Shown here: one piece after another, positions 4,468-48,104 of the stretch
Layout of the letters: each line of letters begins with the position of its first letter
How positions within the stretch are numbered: position 1 is the first letter of the stretch
Source: a virus
Taxonomy: Duplodnaviria; Heunggongvirae; Uroviricota; Caudoviricetes
Direction: 5' to 3' (one strand)
Virus record (IMG/VR): IMGVR_UViG_2861048470_000005
DNA: 49,438 nucleotides
Position numbers and translations under genes: made by a program
The notes under the pieces: generated by a model
What the model saw: only the letters and a program-made list of their open reading frames with translations
Databases searched by the model: none
What the model was told of the DNA's origin: nothing

Positions 4468-4927
4468 TGTTTTTGGTTTTAACTGTTCCGCGTGCGCTCA
4501 GCCGCATTCACCACATCACAAAATTCACTTTAAAAAGGGCGGCAGAGCAGTCACGGAGTAAAACTGATACCGCCAAACGTCACCAGAAAATTGATAACAG
4601 AGGGCGTTGCAGCGGAGTTGTCACTTAAGCGTATGGTCAACCTGACAACCCGGTGTCCTCAACGGAGGAAGGAATAACCCCGCCATACTTACCGCCGCGC
4701 CATTTCGCGGAGTGCCACAACCGGAAGCGCACGGTCGAACTAAATTTAACGACACCGTACAGAGAGACCAATTTCGCCGTGCGCTTTCGCTTTATGCCCT
4801 GACTTTTCAGGGACATATCCTTTCAGTAAACTGTCAGTGCCGGATGTTCACCCGTGTCCGGCGCACGCACTCCACCTGACCCGTGGAGAACTCCTTAATT
4901 ACCAACCTTAGCTTCGTTGGTTAGCTA

Positions 4928-10096: not shown

Positions 10097-11251
10097 ATGG
10101 ATTATTTATCAGAAGTGTTAAAAATCATTGAAGGTGCAACAAAGGCAAATGCTTCGATGGCTAGTAATTATGCTGGGTTGCTGGCAGATAAGCTCGAACA
10201 AAAAGGGGAGGTCAAGCAAGCCAGAATGATAAGAGAAAGGTTGCTTAGAGCTCCCCAGGCGTTGGCAGGAGCTCAAAGGGCTGGAGGTGGGATATCTCTG
10301 GGCTCATTACCGGTAGATATTGATAGTCGACTCAACACTGTTGATGTCAGTTATCCTAAATTAGACAGTTCAGAGATTTTTCTGCCTGCAGCAATCAGTA
10401 CCCGTGTTGAAGAGTTTATCACTAATGTTCAACGTTATGATGAGTTTGTTAAAGCTGATGCAGCATTGCCGAGTCGTATGCTCGTGTATGGAAAGCCAGG
10501 AACAGGTAAGACTATGTTATCTAAGTACATCGCTACCCGCTTAGATTTTCCACTTCTTACAGTGCGTTGCGATACTTTGATTAGTAGTTTATTGGGACAA
10601 ACCAGCAAAAATCTTAGACAGGTTTTCGATTATGTAATGCAGAGGCCATCAGTGCTTTTTTTAGACGAATTTGATGCTTTAGCTGGAGCAAGAGGTAATG
10701 AGAGAGATATAGGTGAGCTTCAGCGAGTTGTCATTTCACTATTGCAGAATATGGATGCGGCATCAGAGGATACGGTAATTATTGCCTCAACTAACCATGA
10801 GCAACTTCTGGATCCTGCAATCTGGAGGCGATTTAGCTTCAGAATTCCAATGCCTCTGCCTGACATACATCAGAGAGAGTTAATTTGGAAAAATCGTTTA
10901 AAGAATATGATATGTAGCGATCTAGATTTAAGTGATTTATCAAGAAAATCGGAGGGATTATCCGGAGCAATAATTGAACAGGTGAGCTTGGATGCACGTA
11001 GGGATGCAGTTATTGAAGGTGCAAGTGTGATAAATCACCATAAATTGTATAGGCGTTTGTATCTTGCGCAATCGCTTATGGAAGGTGTAAATTTAAGCAC
11101 TTACGAAGATGAAATTCGTTGGTTACGTTCTAAAGATAAAAAATTATTTTCTATCAGAGTTCTTGCTAATTTGTACAAACTTACATCAAGAGTAATTTCA
11201 AACATTCTGAAGGAGTCAGGAGCATATGAGCAGAAGGGGTACACAGTTTAG
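10097..11251 (+). CDS. AAA+ ATPase (classical AAA family), first gene of a two-gene cargo operon; candidate IetA-like defence ATPase
   Basis: 384-aa ORF with Walker A GKPGTGKT, Walker B VLFLDEFDAL, sensor-1 IIASTNHEQ and arginine-finger region WRRFSFR. The DNA is visibly more AT-rich than flanking phage genes. GGGAG lies upstream of the ATG. Confidence 0.85.
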   Translation: MDYLSEVLKIIEGATKANASMASNYAGLLADKLEQKGEVKQARMIRERLLRAPQALAGAQRAGGGISLGSLPVDIDSRLNTVDVSYPKLDSSEIFLPAAISTRVEEFITNVQRYDEFVKADAALPSRMLVYGKPGTGKTMLSKYIATRLDFPLLTVRCDTLISSLLGQTSKNLRQVFDYVMQRPSVLFLDEFDALAGARGNERDIGELQRVVISLLQNMDAASEDTVIIASTNHEQLLDPAIWRRFSFRIPMPLPDIHQRELIWKNRLKNMICSDLDLSDLSRKSEGLSGAIIEQVSLDARRDAVIEGASVINHHKLYRRLYLAQSLMEGVNLSTYEDEIRWLRSKDKKLFSIRVLANLYKLTSRVISNILKESGAYEQKGYTV

Positions 11252-13490
11252 TAACGCAAAAGTTACAAACCCAATGTTAAGAATCCCTTTTTCCAGTAGT
11301 GACTTGGGTGCAATAGTAAACGCTGGCGGTGGGGCAAAGGTATTGGTTGATGTAACAGCCGAATATAGACAAGGGCTAGTAAGAAATTTAACAACCAGTA
11401 AACATTATTTAGAATCCAAACTTTCAGAGTACCCTGGAAGCTTGGGTACTTTGGTTTTCAAATTAAGAGACCAGGGAATAGCCAAAACGCATAGGCCGAA
11501 CAAAATTGCTCAAGAGGCTGGATTGCAAAATGCCGGTCATGCCAAAATAGATGAAATGTTGGTTGCTGCTCATGCCGGCTGTTTTGACGTATTAGAGTCA
11601 GTCATTTTACATCGGAATATTAAAGCGATTTTGGCTAATCTAAGCGCGATTGAGCGCATTGAACCTTGGGATGAGAATAGGAAGGTTCCAGGAGGCACTG
11701 ATGGTTTGTTTGAATCATCAAACATCCTTGTACGACTATTTGAGTACACAGGTGAAGATGCAACTTACAACAACTATGAAAACGTTATTTCTATATTAGA
11801 ACAACACGGAGTTAAATATGATGAGATTAGACCAAAATGTGGTCTTCCCTTATTAAGGATAATGGATTTATCCCCAAATGATAGATATATATTAGACATT
11901 CTCATTGATTACCCGGGTATAAGAACGTTAATTCCAGAACCAAAATATTCAGCATTCCCGGTTAGTGTAAGTGATTCTGTTGGCATTGAAACAAATAGCT
12001 TTCCCGTACCATCAGAAGAATTACCCATTGTTGCTGTATTTGACACTGGGGTAAGCCCCATCGCGGCAACAATTACTCCTTGGGTAGTGAGTAGGGAAAC
12101 ATACGTAATTCCTCCTGATACGAGTTATGAACATGGGACTATGGTGTCTTCATTGATATCAGGCGCTCATTTTTTAAATGACAATCATCCATGGATTCCT
12201 GATACAAAATCTAAAATCCATGATGTTTGTGCTTTAGATGGAAATGGATCTTATATATCAGATTTAATTCTGAGGCTAGCAGATGCTGTAAATAAAAGAC
12301 CAGATATAAAAGTCTGGAATTTGTCTTTGGGAGGCGGACCATGTAATGAGCAGATGTTTAGTGATTTTGCGATGGAGTTAGATCGGCTCAGCGATAAATT
12401 TGGTATTTTGTTTGTAGTTGCTGCAGGTAATTATGTAGATGAACCTATACGTACATGGCCAAATCCTGATCCGCTTGGAGGTGCTGATTTAATTTCCTCT
12501 CCTGGAGAGTCAGTCCGAGCACTAACAGTTGGTTCAGTTTCTCATATGGAAGCTAATGATGCTTTAAGTGAAATTGGAACACCGACACCATATACTCGTC
12601 GTGGCCCTGGGCCTGTATTTACTCCAAAGCCAGATATAATCCATGCTGGCGGTGGGGTTCATAGACCTTGGAATGTAGGAGCAAGCAGTTTAAAGGTCGT
12701 AGGGCCAGATAATAGGCTTTGCTCTAATTTTGGTACTAGTTTTGCTGCTCCAATTGTGGCAAGTTTAGCTGCGCATACATGGCAGAGAATAGCCACTAAT
12801 GCAGACTTTAATGTTTCACCATCATTGATTAAAGCATTATTAATTCATTCCGCTCAATTATCTTCTCCTGATTACTCGCCAAGTGAAAGACGCTATTTGG
12901 GAGCGGGAATTCCTAATGAGGTTATTGAGACCTTATATGATAGTGATGATAGGTTTACTCTGATTTTCCAAACATTCTTGGTTCCTGGGGTGAGGTGGAG
13001 AAAGGAAAACTATCCCATACCATCGGCACTTATTCAAAATGGAAAATTTAAAGGTGAGATTGTAATTACTGCTGCATATGCACCACCACTGAACTCTAAT
13101 GCCGGCAGTGAATATGTTCGCGCAAACGTAGAGCTAAGTTTTGGCTTAATTGAGAATAATACTATAAAAGGAAAAGTACCTATGGAAGGAGAAAACGGTC
13201 AATCTGGATATGAGAGAGCTCAAATTGAGCATGGTGGAAAGTGGTCACCAGTAAAAATTCATCGCAAGGCATTTAATAAAGGAATTACTTCGGGTAACTG
13301 GGCTCTTCAAGCTAAAACAACGTTGAGAGCGAATGAACCGGCCTTAATGGAGCCTTTACCTGTAACTATTGTAGTAACTTTAAAATCATTAGATGGAAAC
13401 ACACAAGTTTATGCTGATGGCGTAAGAGCTTTAAATGCTAATAACTGGGCTCACTATCCATTGCCTGCTCGTGTGCCAGTTTCCGTATAA
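11226..13490 (+). CDS. S8 family subtilisin-like serine peptidase with N- and C-terminal extensions; candidate IetS-like defence protease
   Basis: 754-aa ORF. Catalytic residues in S8 order: Asp (VAVFDTGVS), His (YEHGTMVSSLISG), oxyanion Asn (VVAAGNY), Ser (GTSFAAPIVASLAAH). Tandem AGGAG ribosome-binding sites at 11212-11221 and a 26-nt overlap with the ATPase stop suggest translational coupling. Confidence 0.85.
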   Translation: MSRRGTQFSNAKVTNPMLRIPFSSSDLGAIVNAGGGAKVLVDVTAEYRQGLVRNLTTSKHYLESKLSEYPGSLGTLVFKLRDQGIAKTHRPNKIAQEAGLQNAGHAKIDEMLVAAHAGCFDVLESVILHRNIKAILANLSAIERIEPWDENRKVPGGTDGLFESSNILVRLFEYTGEDATYNNYENVISILEQHGVKYDEIRPKCGLPLLRIMDLSPNDRYILDILIDYPGIRTLIPEPKYSAFPVSVSDSVGIETNSFPVPSEELPIVAVFDTGVSPIAATITPWVVSRETYVIPPDTSYEHGTMVSSLISGAHFLNDNHPWIPDTKSKIHDVCALDGNGSYISDLILRLADAVNKRPDIKVWNLSLGGGPCNEQMFSDFAMELDRLSDKFGILFVVAAGNYVDEPIRTWPNPDPLGGADLISSPGESVRALTVGSVSHMEANDALSEIGTPTPYTRRGPGPVFTPKPDIIHAGGGVHRPWNVGASSLKVVGPDNRLCSNFGTSFAAPIVASLAAHTWQRIATNADFNVSPSLIKALLIHSAQLSSPDYSPSERRYLGAGIPNEVIETLYDSDDRFTLIFQTFLVPGVRWRKENYPIPSALIQNGKFKGEIVITAAYAPPLNSNAGSEYVRANVELSFGLIENNTIKGKVPMEGENGQSGYERAQIEHGGKWSPVKIHRKAFNKGITSGNWALQAKTTLRANEPALMEPLPVTIVVTLKSLDGNTQVYADGVRALNANNWAHYPLPARVPVSV

Positions 13491-13898: not shown

Positions 13899-14177
13899 AT
13901 GGCGCACGATACCAAATTTTACAATTCGGATAACTCTGCCGCCCCTGCCAGCAGGCACGGGCGGCGTTCTCATGCATTCAAATCTGACTGGTATCAGCAC
14001 GACCCCTGCACCGAAGAACAGGCTGAATGGCTCATTCAGTGTTACCGCGGGCGCGGATGCGAGGTTAAAAAAGCCCTTAGCCTCGACTACCGTCACTGGA
14101 TAATCTCCGTCAGGCTCCCTTACTCAGAACGGCCAGCGCGTCCGTCCCGCACATTCCAGCAACGGATCTGGAGGTAA
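13899..14177 (+). CDS. Hypothetical protein (uncertain)
   Basis: 92-aa ORF after a ~360-bp AT-rich intergenic region; unrecognised and overlapped by an antisense ORF. Could be coding, or part of the upstream region of the next gene. Confidence 0.25.
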   Translation: MAHDTKFYNSDNSAAPASRHGRRSHAFKSDWYQHDPCTEEQAEWLIQCYRGRGCEVKKALSLDYRHWIISVRLPYSERPARPSRTFQQRIWR

Positions 14178-14178
14178 T

Positions 14179-15237
14179 GTGCGGGTATTACTTCGATCTG
14201 TTCTGGTACCGGAACTCGGTCTGGTTATCGTTAAGCCAGGCCGTGAATCAATGTCAGCATTCCATAACGGCAGAATACTGGTGGAGCCGGAACCAAAAAG
14301 CATGCGTAATCTGCCGTCCGGGGTCGTTCCTGCCGCTCGCCAGCCGCTGGTGGAAGACAAAACATTGCTGCCGTTTTTCAGCGACGAACGAGTGATTCGT
14401 GCTGCTGGTGGCGCTGGCGCATTGTCTGACTGGTTACTGCGCCATGTTAAATCCTGCCAGTGGCCACACGGCGATTATCACCACAGTGAAACCGTCATTC
14501 ACCGTTATGGTACCGGCGCAATGGTGTTGTGCTGGCACTGCGACAACCAGTTGCGTGACCAGACCTCAGAATCACTTGAGCAACTTGCTCACCAAAACTT
14601 GTCAGCATGGATGATTGACGTCATCCGTCACGCAATCAGCGGTACGCAGGAGAGGGAGTTATCGCTGGCCGAATTATCCTGGTGGGCGGTCTGCAATCAG
14701 GTGGCTGATGCGCTTCCGGAGTCTGTATCGTGTCGTTCACTGGGATTACCGGTGGAAAAAATCCGCTCCGTATACCGTGAGAGTGACATCGTACCGGGAG
14801 AACAGACTGCCACCAGCATACTGAAGCAGCGCACAAAAAATATTGCGCTGCCACTTCACGCCCACCAGCAACAGCCCCCACTCCAGGAAAAGACGTTAGT
14901 AAGCATCGCCGTTGATCCGGAGTCTCCGGCTCAGTATCTCCAGCGCCAGAAACCACAACGGGAAGAGATGCCTGTATACACGCGCTGGGTAAAAACGCAG
15001 AAATGCATGACGTGCGGTAATCAGGCAGATGATCCGCATCACATCATTGGTCATGGCCTGGGAGGTATGGGAACAAAGGCTGATGATTTGTTTGTTATTC
15101 CGCTGTGCCGTAAATGTCATAACGAACTGCACGCCGGGGTAAAAGATTTTGAAGAAAAATACGGCAGCCAGCTGTTGTTGCTGATTCGTTTTTTAATGCA
15201 CGCGAGAAATTCGGGTGTCCTGAAGTGGAAAGCATGA
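14179..15237 (+). CDS. DUF968-like nin-region protein with C-terminal Cys/His HNH-like cluster (YdfU-like)
   Basis: 352-aa ORF with a C-terminal CMTCGN...HHIIGHG...CRKCHNELH motif; located immediately upstream of rusA, as in cryptic E. coli prophages (recall). Confidence 0.55.
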   Translation: MRVLLRSVLVPELGLVIVKPGRESMSAFHNGRILVEPEPKSMRNLPSGVVPAARQPLVEDKTLLPFFSDERVIRAAGGAGALSDWLLRHVKSCQWPHGDYHHSETVIHRYGTGAMVLCWHCDNQLRDQTSESLEQLAHQNLSAWMIDVIRHAISGTQERELSLAELSWWAVCNQVADALPESVSCRSLGLPVEKIRSVYRESDIVPGEQTATSILKQRTKNIALPLHAHQQQPPLQEKTLVSIAVDPESPAQYLQRQKPQREEMPVYTRWVKTQKCMTCGNQADDPHHIIGHGLGGMGTKADDLFVIPLCRKCHNELHAGVKDFEEKYGSQLLLLIRFLMHARNSGVLKWKA

Positions 15238-15618
15238 ATGACCGAACGCATAGAATTTGTTTTGCCTTACCCGCCAACGGTGAACACCTACTGGCGACGT
15301 CGTGGCAGCACATATTTTGTATCAAAAGCCGGTGAGCGTTATCGCCGTGATGTGGCGCTTATTGTTCGCCAGCAGCGGCTGAAATTAAGCCTGTCCGGAA
15401 GGCTGGCGATAAAGGTGATTGCAGAGCCACCGGATAAGCGTCGTCGCGACCTGGACAATATCCTGAAAGCACCGCTGGATGCGCTGACGCATGCGGGAGT
15501 GTTAATGGACGATGAGCAGTTTGATGAAATCAATATCGTTCGTGGTCAGCCAGTATCTGGTGGACGTATGGGGGTGAAGATTTACCCCATAATGCATGAA
15601 GAGCAGGTCAAAAAATGA
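15238..15618 (+). CDS. rusA: Holliday junction resolvase RusA
   Basis: 126-aa ORF with the RusA family hallmark region (...DLDNILKAPLDALTHAGVLMDDEQ...); nin-region position upstream of Q. Confidence 0.85.
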   Translation: MTERIEFVLPYPPTVNTYWRRRGSTYFVSKAGERYRRDVALIVRQQRLKLSLSGRLAIKVIAEPPDKRRRDLDNILKAPLDALTHAGVLMDDEQFDEINIVRGQPVSGGRMGVKIYPIMHEEQVKK

Positions 15619-16436
15619 AACTGGAAGATTTACCGAAATACTACTCCCCAAAATCCCCTGGCCTGACCGATGCATCGGCCTCAACGTCAAAAGATGCGCT
15701 GAGTATCACTGATGTGATGGCCGCGCAGGGCATGACACAGAATCGGGCTGAGATGGGTTTTTCTGCGTTCCTGGGGAAAATGGGCATCAGTATGAATGAC
15801 AGGGCGCGGGCAACAGAATTACTGGCAGATTATGCACTCAGTCGGTGCGATCGTGTGGCGGCGTTGAGAAAACTTCCGGCAGAAATAAAACCGGTAGTGA
15901 TGCGCATTATGGCTTCGTACGCTTTTGAGGATTATGCCCGCAGCGCAGCGAGTAAAAAGCAGTGCCCTTGTTGCTATGGGGAAAAATTTATTGAAAGCGT
16001 AGTTTTTACAAACAAGGTCCAGTATCCGGATGGTAAGCCGCCGGTATGGGCAAAGTGTACGAAAGGTGTGTATTCGTCTTACTGGGAAGAATGGAAAAAA
16101 GTCAGGGAGGTGGTAAAAGTTGCCTGTCCGGAGTGTGGCGGAAAGGGTGAGGTTTCCACCGCCTGTAAGGATTGCCGTGGGCGTGGTGTCGCCATTCATC
16201 GTGAAGAGTCGGTAAAACGTGGTATGCCTGTTATCAGAGACTGCCAGCGTTGTGGTGGTCGTGGCTATGAAAGACTACCATCAACGGAGGCATTTAATGC
16301 TATATGCGAGGTGACAAACCAGATAACACGCGCGTCATGGGAAAAAACAGTTAAGAAATTCTATGATGCGCTGGTGACCCGGTTTGATGTTGAAGAAGCA
16401 TGGGCTGAGCGGCAGTTAAAAAAGGTAACTAGGTAA
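15615..16436 (+). CDS. Late-gene antitermination protein Q-like (zinc-binding)
   Basis: 273-aa ORF with multiple CxxC pairs (CPCCYG, CPECGG, CKDCRG, CQRCGG). Sits directly upstream of a short promoter-terminator unit and the lysis genes. Confidence 0.65.
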   Translation: MKLEDLPKYYSPKSPGLTDASASTSKDALSITDVMAAQGMTQNRAEMGFSAFLGKMGISMNDRARATELLADYALSRCDRVAALRKLPAEIKPVVMRIMASYAFEDYARSAASKKQCPCCYGEKFIESVVFTNKVQYPDGKPPVWAKCTKGVYSSYWEEWKKVREVVKVACPECGGKGEVSTACKDCRGRGVAIHREESVKRGMPVIRDCQRCGGRGYERLPSTEAFNAICEVTNQITRASWEKTVKKFYDALVTRFDVEEAWAERQLKKVTR

Positions 16437-16441
16437 CAAGG

Positions 16442-16469
16442 TTGATTTTTCCGGAATCTGTGGTAAATT
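16442..16469 (+). promoter_or_regulatory. Candidate late promoter pR' (extended -10)
   Basis: TTGATT (16442-16447), 16-bp spacer, TG-n-TAAATT (16461-16469), immediately downstream of Q. Confidence 0.35.
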
Positions 16470-16516
16470 CGTCATAATAATGGGCTTTTTATGCCTGACG
16501 TTAGAAGAGTTTCTAC

Positions 16517-16541
16517 AACCCGCCGCCGAGCGGGTTTTTTA
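16517..16541 (+). terminator. Candidate tR' terminator (Q-antiterminated)
   Basis: GC-rich hairpin ACCCGC-cgccga-GCGGGT followed by TTTTTTATT, about 50-60 nt downstream of the putative pR'. Confidence 0.5.
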
Positions 16542-16579
16542 TTGCGGAATTAATTACGGACCGTTATTATTCTGCTCCC

Positions 16580-16655
16580 GGCCCTTTAGCTCAGTGGTGA
16601 GAGCGAGCGACTCATAATCGCCAGGTCGCTGGTTCAAATCCAGCAAGGGCCACCA
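16580..16655 (+). tRNA. tRNA with anticodon CAU (Met, or Ile2 if lysidinylated), encoded CCA
   Basis: 76-nt sequence folds by hand into a cloverleaf: acceptor GGCCCTT/AAGGGCC, anticodon loop cuCAUaa, T-loop GGTTCAAATCC, 3' CCA. Confidence 0.8.
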
Positions 16656-16755
16656 TCACAAACCGCCATTAGCTTATCAGGAAGAGCAGACGACACGATA
16701 ACAGGGTTGTTGGTGCGGGGGCGGGTCCCCGATGGCGGTCCATTATCGGTATTCA

Positions 16756-16829
16756 GCGTTGTTAGCTCAGCCGGACAGAGCAATTGCCTTCTAAGCAATC
16801 GGTCACTGGTTCGAATCCAGTACAGCGCG
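16756..16829 (+). tRNA. tRNA-Arg (anticodon UCU)
   Basis: 74-nt cloverleaf: acceptor GCGTTGT/ACAGCGC (one G-U pair), anticodon stem ATTGC/GCAAT with loop ctTCTaa, T-loop GGTTCGAATCC; no encoded CCA. Confidence 0.8.
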
Positions 16830-16942
16830 CTATATTCATTCTTCCAGATTCCTTCCGGCAGAGCCTTATACTGAAATATACCTGGCTCAGGATATTGTTG
16901 AAAATATTTTATGTTTGTCAAAAATAAAAGTTCTGTTAAGTA

Positions 16943-17296
16943 TTGATTGAGTGTTTGTTATACGGTCTAATGGTTTTTTCAGCATTAAATATTTATCATT
17001 CATATGGTGTGGGTAGAGTGAATATTGATGAGGCGTCGGGGTGTTTCATCCTTAGGCAGCGTATTGATATAGTCAATGCAGGACGAGCAAAGGCCTTCAG
17101 CCGTTTGACAGTTTTGTTCTGTACTCCTGATCGTCTTTCGGGAAGAGACGTTATTATTCTGAATAGTGATGCTATACAGAGGGTTTGCGATGAGTTCATG
17201 GTTGCTAATTCAGAATTATTTGCTCTTGTTCAGGAGTACAACAGAATAGCCAGGACCTGTGGTATGGATGAACTTCGGATTACTCATCTGGGGTAG
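16943..17296 (+). CDS. Hypothetical cargo protein downstream of the tRNAs
   Basis: 117-aa ORF with no recognised motif, in the slot occupied by stx in Stx phages. Confidence 0.3.
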   Translation: MIECLLYGLMVFSALNIYHSYGVGRVNIDEASGCFILRQRIDIVNAGRAKAFSRLTVLFCTPDRLSGRDVIILNSDAIQRVCDEFMVANSELFALVQEYNRIARTCGMDELRITHLG

Positions 17297-17687
17297 ATAC
17301 ATATCTGGATTATCACTTGTTACGGTAAAAAGTGATTGCTTACTGTTTTTGTGAGTGGCATTGCAGCAGCCGGATAATGTCAGTGCTGGCTGACGGTGTG
17401 CTGGTGGCGGGTGTGGTGGTTGTTGCTTTCCCGTTGCTGAAAAAGAAAACGCCAGACTGTTAGCCGGGTATCAGTTAGCGGGAGAAATTTTTAAATACTT
17501 CACAATTCAGGCGGTTGACTGTTGTCTGGTTTGCGGGGAGTTTGTTAAAAGAAACTGGCATGGTGAATCCCCCTGTGCGGAGGGGCAATCAGCGAGTAGG
17601 TATATGGGATAATCGCGGATTCAGGTGCTGGTACTGAATTCACCGGGAGGCACCCGGCACCATGCAATGGCACATAGCGCCACTCTC

Positions 17688-17716
17688 CAGCCCCTCTCCG
17701 GAGGGGCTGTTTATAT
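17688..17716 (+). terminator. Candidate rho-independent terminator
   Basis: Hairpin CAGCCCCTCTCC-GG-AGGGGCTG followed by TTTATATTGATTTTG. Confidence 0.4.
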
Positions 17717-17743
17717 TGATTTTGTCAGATGTGAGTAAACTCC

Positions 17744-47520: not shown

Positions 47521-48104
47521 TGGCATTCAGAATGAGTGAACAAGCACGGACCATAAAAATTTATAATCTGCTGGCCGGAACTAATGAATTTATTGGTGAA
47601 GGTGACGCATATATTCCGCCTCATACAGGTCTGCCAGCAAACAGTACCGATATTGCACCACCAGATATTCCTGCTGGCTTTGTGGCTGTTTTCAACAGTG
47701 ATGAGGCATCGTGGCATCTCGTTGAAGACCATCGGGGTAAAACGGTTTATGACGTAGCGTCAGGGGACGAGTTATTTATTTCTGAACTCGGTCCGTTACC
47801 GGAAAATGTTACCTGGTTATCGCCGGAAGGGGAGTTTCAGAAGTGGAACGGCACAGCCTGGGTGAAGGATACGGAAGCAGAAAAACTGTTCCGGATCCGG
47901 GAGGCGGAAGAAACAAAAAACAACCTGATGCAGGTAGCCAGTGAGCATATTGCGCCGCTTCAGGATGCTGCAGATCTGGAAATTGCAACGGAGGAAGAAA
48001 CCTCATTGCTGGAAGCCTGGAAAAAGTATCGGGTGTTGCTGAACCGTGTTGATACATCAACTGCACCTGATATTGAGTGGCCTACGAACCCTGTCAGGGA
48101 GTAA
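47520..48104 (+). CDS. tfa: Tail fibre assembly protein Tfa
   Basis: 194-aa ORF overlapping the stf stop (TAATG) with the conserved C-terminus ...[26 protein letters not shown]. Confidence 0.85.

Follow-up and report, generated by a model that had tools for sequence, protein, structure and literature searches.

The stretch between positions 16437 and 16830 of the DNA analysed here (IMG/VR record IMGVR_UViG_2861048470_000005, Caudoviricetes, 49,438 nucleotides in all and referred to below as the window) lies in a lambdoid, Qin-like prophage of enterotoxigenic Escherichia coli (ETEC) whose insertion site adjoins ompW. We are confident that this stretch is the late-gene control point of the prophage, joined directly to a mobile tRNA cassette. 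Judged by its sequence, the unit represents late control in the style of phages lambda and P22, carried by another branch of the lambda-Q family and fused by deletion to a two-tRNA cassette of the kind found in Shiga toxin (Stx) phages. Such units are familiar, and RefSeq already has annotations for the tRNAs. The late promoter, pR', and the terminator, tR', that accompany this type of Q antiterminator seemingly have no annotation in the records we retrieved.

The Q gene (15615–16436, plus strand) lies immediately upstream and encodes a protein of 273 amino acids. This protein matches Pfam PF03589 (E 2e-54), aligns by BLASTP with lambda Q from end to end at 31% identity (E 3e-39), and is termed an "antitermination protein" in RefSeq. 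It has a Cys-rich insert that lambda Q lacks and, on these alignments, is a full-length lambda-Q homologue. Its stop codon (TAA) occupies 16434–16436, and the −35 hexamer of a candidate pR' (16442–16469, plus strand) starts 6 nucleotides later. This candidate, recognized from its sequence and by comparison, consists of TTGATT (16442–16447), a 16-nucleotide spacer (16448–16463), and an extended −10 in which TG (16461–16462) precedes TAAATT (16464–16469). Downstream is AATAAT followed by GGG (16476–16484, plus strand), a candidate sigma-70-dependent pause element identified by comparison with lambda and P22. The initial annotation had described Q followed by TTGATT, a 16-bp spacer, and an extended −10, all of which direct reading of the letters confirms. 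It had also proposed that this is the layout of a Q-dependent late promoter with a short, terminated leader, a proposal now supported by the PF03589 assignment of Q and by the pR' arrangement of lambda and P22, including the pause hexamer.

The likeness to these two phages can be followed element by element. The window reads TTGATT-16 nt-TGgTAAATT-cgtcat-AATAAT-GGG, and lambda reads TTGACT-17 nt-TAAATT-tgactc-AACGAT-GGG. P22 has the lambda arrangement, and its promoter, start nucleotide, qut-like site, and terminator are annotated in BK000583. Shared by all three are a PF03589-family Q immediately upstream, an identical −10 (TAAATT), the spacing from it to AANNAT and GG(G) at the transcript start, and an intrinsic terminator soon after. 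The window differs in that its Q, with the Cys-rich insert, is just 29–31% identical to those of lambda and P22, its spacer is unrelated in sequence and is 16 rather than 17 nucleotides long, and its −10 is extended by TG. Its AATAAT is nearer to the −10 consensus than the AACGAT of lambda. When a pattern was derived from lambda only (TAAATT-N6-AACGATGGG, with up to two mismatches), the 49-kb window contained one match, at 16464–16484; 0.08 matches were expected by chance, and 8 of 100 shuffles gave a match.

In lambda and P22, the first A of the hexamer is the transcript start. The −10-like hexamer in lambda holds sigma-70, pausing the polymerase for Q loading, and this mechanism is well established. 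By analogy, +1 in the window is predicted to be A16476. Host sigma-70 polymerase would start constitutively at pR' (16442–16469) and pause when sigma region 2 binds again, this time to AATAAT-GGG in the first transcribed bases. Without Q, the polymerase would then escape and stop at tR' (16517–16541, plus strand), yielding a predicted leader RNA of about 63–66 nucleotides (16476–16541, plus strand) as defined by the predicted +1 and the terminator. After induction, Q would bind an element in the promoter spacer, for which the candidate is TTTCCGGAATCTGTGG, containing the palindrome TTCCGGAA, and would load onto the paused polymerase, making it resistant to terminators. The polymerase so modified would pass tR', the tRNA cassette, a gene for a 108-amino acid protein, and the terminator of an STnc100-family RNA to reach the genes for lysis and morphogenesis.

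The terminator emerged from a terminator scan and from folding as a 7-bp stem with 5 G-C pairs, a 6-nucleotide loop, and a T6 run; the hairpin AACCCGC-cgccga-GCGGGTT spans 16517–16536, and the T-run reaches 16541. The initial annotation had called it strong. An intrinsic terminator is indeed present at 16517–16541, but at −11.2 kcal/mol its hairpin is moderate. The stem is retained in relatives. Every lambda-Q-family comparator has an intrinsic terminator at the equivalent position, within about 60–200 nucleotides, and those at the tR' position of P22, PHB10, ES18, Eho49, and a Klebsiella phage are non-homologous. The leader predicted for the window is close in length to that of P22 (59 nucleotides, annotated); that of lambda is 194 nucleotides. 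Two other candidates in this region were rejected. A match to the Rfam Trp_leader family at 16437–16543 (25.7 bits against a gathering score of 41, E 0.014) is a terminator look-alike. An open reading frame of 45 amino acids that starts in the leader (16480–16617) was treated as spurious, as it has no ribosome-binding site and crosses the terminator into the tRNA.

Conservation ties this segment to Q. As a comparison set we used 80 IMG/VR viral contigs that encode the Q of the window at 94–100% amino acid identity. The 106 bp after Q are carried by all 80 of these loci. In 14 loci (listed as L049, L050, L052, L074, and L077–L085, with an exception around L083), homology to the window breaks at 16540–16542, and what follows is either a 1.5-kb segment with a gene for a DPPY-motif DNA methylase, located between tR' and the tRNA cassette, or unrelated DNA. 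Because the 106 bp always accompany Q and homology stops at the terminator end, 16437–16542 reads as a module belonging to Q, with the end of the terminator as its edge. Nucleotide diversity was computed on the 52 distinct sequences of the related loci over the stretch from Q to argO, the second of the tRNA genes. The block from −35 to −10 is the least variable part of this stretch (0.0053 versus 0.0080 for the Q coding sequence). In most related loci the pause hexamer is AACGAT, as in lambda. The other forms are AATGAT, AATAAT, AACTAT, AAAGAT, and AACAAT, all of which retain the A at position 2 and the T at position 6, those on which recognition by sigma depends most; the sole exception to this pattern of hexamers is GATGAT, in one locus. 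Among the most variable columns between Q and argO across the 52 loci are 16478–16479, hexamer positions 3 and 4, and 16486, two positions past GGG, all of them tri-allelic. Either the pause or the leader might be subject to tuning at these sites, or the sites might be a hot spot of mutation.

The promoter spacer is almost unchanged among relatives with the Q of the window. The pattern TYCCSGAA...CTGGGG is common to PHB10, Erwinia phage Eho49, and a Klebsiella phage, whose Q proteins are 54, 49, and 41% identical to that of the window, respectively, whereas a phage of the Stx2k type (Q 39% identical) and lambda and P22 (about 29–31%) have unrelated spacers. A spacer that tracks Q relatedness is suggestive, this being the behavior expected of a Q-binding element that co-evolves with its cognate Q.

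Several observations weigh against this account of pR' and tR'. The promoter matches 8 of 12 hexamer positions and is not listed by a generic promoter scan, the cut-off of which is 9 of 12; lambda pR' itself scores just 9 of 12. Because the motifs alone are not compelling, the case for a late-promoter unit rests on position and comparison. The energy of the tR' hairpin compares with −18.7 kcal/mol in P22 and −26.4 kcal/mol in lambda, and terminator-like hairpins occur often in the stretch (6 against an expected 2.6). The fold of the whole leader is unremarkable (z = −1.5). The covariation test of tR' was not significant, with one compensatory pair and 135 of 500 shuffles as good, and the same was true of two small hairpins in the leader; these tests failed to reach significance because the relatives are too similar. 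The start site, the pause, and termination are all predicted. A stronger terminator-bearing RNA, STnc100, lies 1 kb downstream, which leaves the picture of tR' as the first barrier incomplete. Finally, an IS66-family element interrupts the terminase gene, and selection on the late module may therefore have ceased in this strain.

Some of these same points could be assembled into a different assignment, in which the hairpin at 16517–16541 ends the early rightward (Q) transcript, the hexamers are due to chance, and the real late promoter and leader belong to STnc100 (17529–17718, plus strand; Rfam RF02076, 132.4 bits), which is nearer to the lysis genes. At about 190 nucleotides, this structured RNA is near lambda 6S RNA in size, and its terminator (17688–17709, −20.3 kcal/mol) is the strongest of the region; the score of the pR' candidate below the generic threshold and the frequency of terminator-like hairpins would be expected as well. 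We nevertheless consider this assignment very improbable. The lambda-type set of −10, 6 nucleotides, AANNAT, and GGG occurs in the window solely at 16464–16484 and is conserved with Q in every relative, and no acceptable −10 precedes 17529. In related loci STnc100 is absent or duplicated independently of the Q type. In Stx2 phages, moreover, it lies 75 nucleotides after stx2B (PMC12370729), well past the mapped pR' and tR' (PMC7547250). Its location after stx2B, the lack of a lambda-type motif, and its variation independent of Q are the grounds on which STnc100 was rejected as the true late leader. With pR' and tR' at 16442–16541, STnc100 would instead be a further terminator that Q-modified polymerase has to pass before the lysis genes.

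The leader raises a question of its own. Leader and terminator (16476–16541) are 77% identical to positions ~2315–2380 of phiSTEC1575-Stx2k (L093 in our set), a phage whose Q is 39% identical to that of the window and whose promoter spacer is different. From this alignment, leader and terminator seem exchangeable separately from Q and its binding site. Because the leader is so similar despite the distance between the Q proteins, and because the middle of the pause hexamer is highly variable, we also consider a reading in which the constitutive leader of ~63–66 nucleotides is a trans-acting, Hfq-binding small RNA of the lysogen, like StxS in Stx phages. We think this unlikely. StxS is the pR' transcript of Stx phages that ends at tR' (PMC7547250), and it resembles the predicted leader in being short, in being expected to be constitutive in lysogens, and in having an intrinsic terminator with a U-tail. 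It differs in its Q type, in its unrelated sequence, and in being processed from a 258-nucleotide precursor to 74 nucleotides (PMC7547250). The variable middle positions of the hexamer would fit selection that tunes either the amount of leader or the ease with which Q engages.

Directly after tR' comes the tRNA cassette. ARAGORN found exactly two tRNAs in the whole window, a tRNA-Ile2 gene of ileZ type with anticodon CAU (16580–16655, plus strand) and a tRNA-Arg(UCU) gene of argO type (16756–16830, plus strand). Rfam RF00005 matches them with 72.5 and 68 bits, respectively, against a gathering score of 29 bits, and in identical ETEC genomes RefSeq places a tRNA-Ile and a tRNA-Arg at these positions. 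The two tRNA genes of the initial annotation are thereby upheld, and so is its statement that Stx phages carry the pair at this position. The cassette was matched in 289 phage records, mostly Stx2 phages; 16540–16847 shares ~88% identity with the DNA preceding stx2 in many Stx2 phages, and 16540–16830 shares 93% with the equivalent part of phiP27. GenBank labels these genes ileZ-argN-argO in an Stx2 phage and ileZ-argO in phiP27. The CAU tRNA is identical to the Stx2a ileZ at all 76 positions, and the argO copy differs from the Stx-phage argO at 2 of 77.

A CAU anticodon could also denote an extra elongator tRNA-Met. ARAGORN, which goes by the anticodon alone, assigns this label, as do several phage records, yet we find it scarcely credible that the gene is anything of the kind. 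It matches K-12 ileX at 68 of 76 positions, against 54 of 78 for the elongator genes metT/metU and 49 of 78 for the initiator gene metZ; it shares its anticodon loop with ileX; and it is annotated as tRNA-Ile or ileZ in RefSeq, AP012540, and AJ298298. Because it is far closer to ileZ and ileX than to the tRNA-Met genes, we assign it, on sequence, to tRNA-Ile2, which reads AUA after lysidine modification. The acceptor pairs C4-G69 and C5-G68 match what we take to be determinants for TilS.

Between these genes, alignment to the argN of an Stx2a phage revealed a degenerate argN tRNA-Arg(UCG) remnant (16663–16742, plus strand), in which the acceptor and D arms are retained, the anticodon arm is replaced, and the T loop is damaged. 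In the gap of ~100 nucleotides between the tRNAs, ARAGORN reported no tRNA, also when it accepted introns and used an 80% threshold, nor did Rfam at E ≤1. Diversity in the remnant is 0.068 versus 0.006 in ileZ and argO. Because this is about ten times the value of its neighbors, the remnant is a pseudogene, and the genes on either side of it are constrained. The argN position is degenerate in phiP27 as well, whereas the cassette of the 933W/Sakai type has three tRNA genes; the remnant of phiP27 has the same replaced anticodon arm but a different T arm.

The content of the slot varies among relatives. Of the 80 loci with the Q of the window, 55 have ileZ and argO, 12 an intact trio of ileZ, argN(TCG), and argO, 4 ileZ alone, 5 no tRNA, and 4 other sets (e.g. 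Lys, Thr, and Gly tRNAs). In a Klebsiella phage whose Q is related, the slot is filled by four different tRNAs. The site just after tR' is a general landing place for tRNA genes. In another group of relatives (L013, L038, L083, vB_EcoS-733R4, 640R1, 716R1, and 813R8), homology to the window ends at 16797, in the middle of argO, with a second, diverged copy of STnc100 beyond it; the break, a product of recombination, falls within the tRNA-Arg gene.

On this evidence, the cassette (16542–16830) is the two-tRNA form of the ileZ-argN-argO cassette of Stx phages in which argN has decayed. A DNA-methylase gene precedes the cassette in other phages, and deletion of this gene or its remnant has fused the cassette to the T-run of tR', which it abuts in the window. 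As in the Stx phages, the cassette sits after Q, pR', and tR' and before the first late cargo gene. No stx follows in the window, however, and its place is taken by the gene for the 108-amino acid protein, a member of phrog_2873.

The cassette probably brings its own promoter. The candidate, TTGCGG-17 nt-TATTAT (16542–16570, plus strand), was recognized by its conservation with an Stx2a phage and phiP27. TTGCGG (16542–16547) stands directly after the T-run, and TATTAT (16565–16570) is followed by a G+C-rich discriminator (ctgctccc) that ends 9 nucleotides before the tRNA. The same TTGNNN-17-TATTAT with a G+C-rich discriminator is present in the Stx-phage cassettes, both 933W/Sakai (ileZ-argN-argO) and phiP27 (ileZ-argO), and TATTAT and the 17-nucleotide spacing are constant in all cassette variants, even those with differing flanks. 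To judge from its letters, the element resembles a stable-RNA promoter with a discriminator for stringent control, and a matching transcription start site has been published for the Sakai Stx2 phage (PMC7547250). Given the conservation of this promoter and the published start site, we think it fairly likely that the tRNAs are made independently of Q, in lysogens too. The promoter would then supply tRNA-Ile2 for AUA and tRNA-Arg(UCU) for AGA and, less well, AGG, probably both in the lysogen and during lytic growth, and Q-dependent read-through would add to this output in the lytic phase. The terminator scan found no terminator after argO in the window, in contrast to Stx phages. The 108-amino acid gene (16970–17296) may therefore receive some Q-independent transcription too.

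What these tRNAs might be for is suggested by codon usage. Per 1000 codons, ATA, AGA, and AGG occur 3.3, 1.3, and 0.3 times in the flanking host genes and 11.5, 13.0, and 8.9 times in the early, nin, and lysis genes of the prophage. The values for iteA plus iteS are 19.3, 23.7, and 13.2, and those for the head and tail genes are 6.1, 3.2, and 4.2. The three codons are thus enriched 3- to 30-fold in the early, accessory, and lysis genes. The pair iteA and iteS (10097–13490, plus strand; 40% G+C), which encodes an anti-phage ATPase and an S8 peptidase in the nin region, is the largest single sink for them in the prophage, with 64 in 1138 codons, and AGA and AGG make up 63% of its arginine codons. 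The open reading frame at 16943–17296 (117 codons), which includes the 108-amino acid gene, has 9 such codons, and an iraM-like gene has 6 ATA codons. For AT-rich accessory, early, and lysis genes, the tRNAs of the cassette would add to the scarce host supply. The initial annotation had supposed that they decode rare codons in cargo genes. The counts fit this idea, but the largest demand lies in the upstream defense genes and not just in downstream cargo. Against a broader role, these codons are sparse in the head and tail genes and missing from the major capsid gene, so the tRNAs are not needed for bulk late protein synthesis. The counts, which are a correlation only, agree with tRNAs that help to decode AT-rich accessory genes and not the bulk of the virion proteins.

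The cassette can also be read differently. One could accept pR' and tR' as real and regard the tRNAs as passive hitch-hikers or decaying remnants that were acquired by recombination with an Stx-like phage and are being lost as argN was. Besides the decay of argN, the state of argO would be in keeping with this. One of its two changes creates a G-U pair at 4:69; through the other, the gene ends in CTA (16828–16830) and no longer in an encoded CCA. Without that CCA and with a G-U pair in its acceptor stem, this copy may be less active, which counts against our account of the cassette. Its end, GCGCG-CTA, is not unique to the window; among 64 related loci that keep this end, 11 have CTA and 52 have CCA, which is also encoded by the argO copies of Stx2a phage and P27 and, in general, by the tRNA genes of E. 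coli. The host CCA-adding enzyme could repair the CTA end. The loci with ileZ only or with no tRNA, the IS66 element in the terminase gene, and the sparing use of ATA, AGA, and AGG by head and tail genes point in the same direction as the decay. We nonetheless hold passive carriage to be improbable. ileZ and argO are ten-fold less diverse than the intervening remnant and do not exceed the Q coding sequence in diversity; ileZ is unchanged from the Stx2a copy in spite of the ~88% identity of the flanking DNA; the cassette promoter is conserved; exactly the ileZ and argO pair is kept in most of the loci (55 of 80); and the codons concerned are strongly enriched in the accessory genes of the prophage.

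The first protein gene after the tRNAs, that for the 108-amino acid protein (16970–17296, plus strand), matches phrog_2873 over its full length (E 3.5e-70) and occupies the stx position of Stx phages; neither RefSeq nor phage mEp460_ev081 has it annotated. It is preceded by an AT-rich, promoter-like stretch at 16898–16925. A RefSeq pseudogene on the opposite strand overlaps STnc100 at 17548–17673. Between STnc100 and the lysis genes, a gene of the IraM anti-adaptor family (17744–18079, minus strand; NF007393, 162 bits; 34% G+C) is inserted on the opposite strand, and this gene could be a route by which the prophage stabilizes RpoS. At 18340–18686 (plus strand), a DUF1737 fragment is accompanied by a 53-amino acid open reading frame that matches the C-terminal ends of long phage proteins (phrog_143, 582–632 of 634), and the two look like the ends of an internally deleted gene. 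The deleted gene may have encoded a nanS-p-type esterase.

In the prophage as a whole, the genes run in the order int-xis-exo-dicB/DicF, repressor/cro, replication genes, iteA-iteS, DUF968-rusA-Q, and the pR'/tR' and tRNA unit, followed by an S21-type holin-YdfR-lysozyme-Rz, terminase, and the head and tail genes. Rfam matches DicF at 4537–4588 (minus strand, 76.7 bits) and IS009 at 47863–48061 (plus strand, 225 bits). Positions 1–22919 of the window correspond to ETEC strain TW10722 with 99.97% ungapped identity, and strain ETEC-2265 is collinear only over ~14000–22900. The segment 15600–18600 is 100% identical in several ETEC chromosomes, and most of it is found in 851 of 5,426 complete E. 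coli genomes. The IS66-family element (22964–25579, plus strand; tnpA, tnpB, and transposase, NCBIfam E 5e-38 to 2e-143) lies inside the large terminase gene, at the point where identity with TW10722 ends, and DNA packaging by this prophage has probably been lost.

These findings leave current understanding unchanged and extend a textbook mechanism to another member of its family. The unit would decide the timing of the late genes behind pR', including those for lysis, the virion, and cargo, in a slot that holds the Shiga toxin genes in relatives. Knowledge of the promoter, pause, and terminator of so widespread a Q type helps to predict whether lysogens keep cargo inserted there silent. Should the cassette have its own promoter, the prophage would change the capacity of its host to decode AUA and AGA/AGG all the time. 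In that case, a constant supply of these tRNAs could help AT-rich acquired genes, such as the IteAS defense system of the same prophage.

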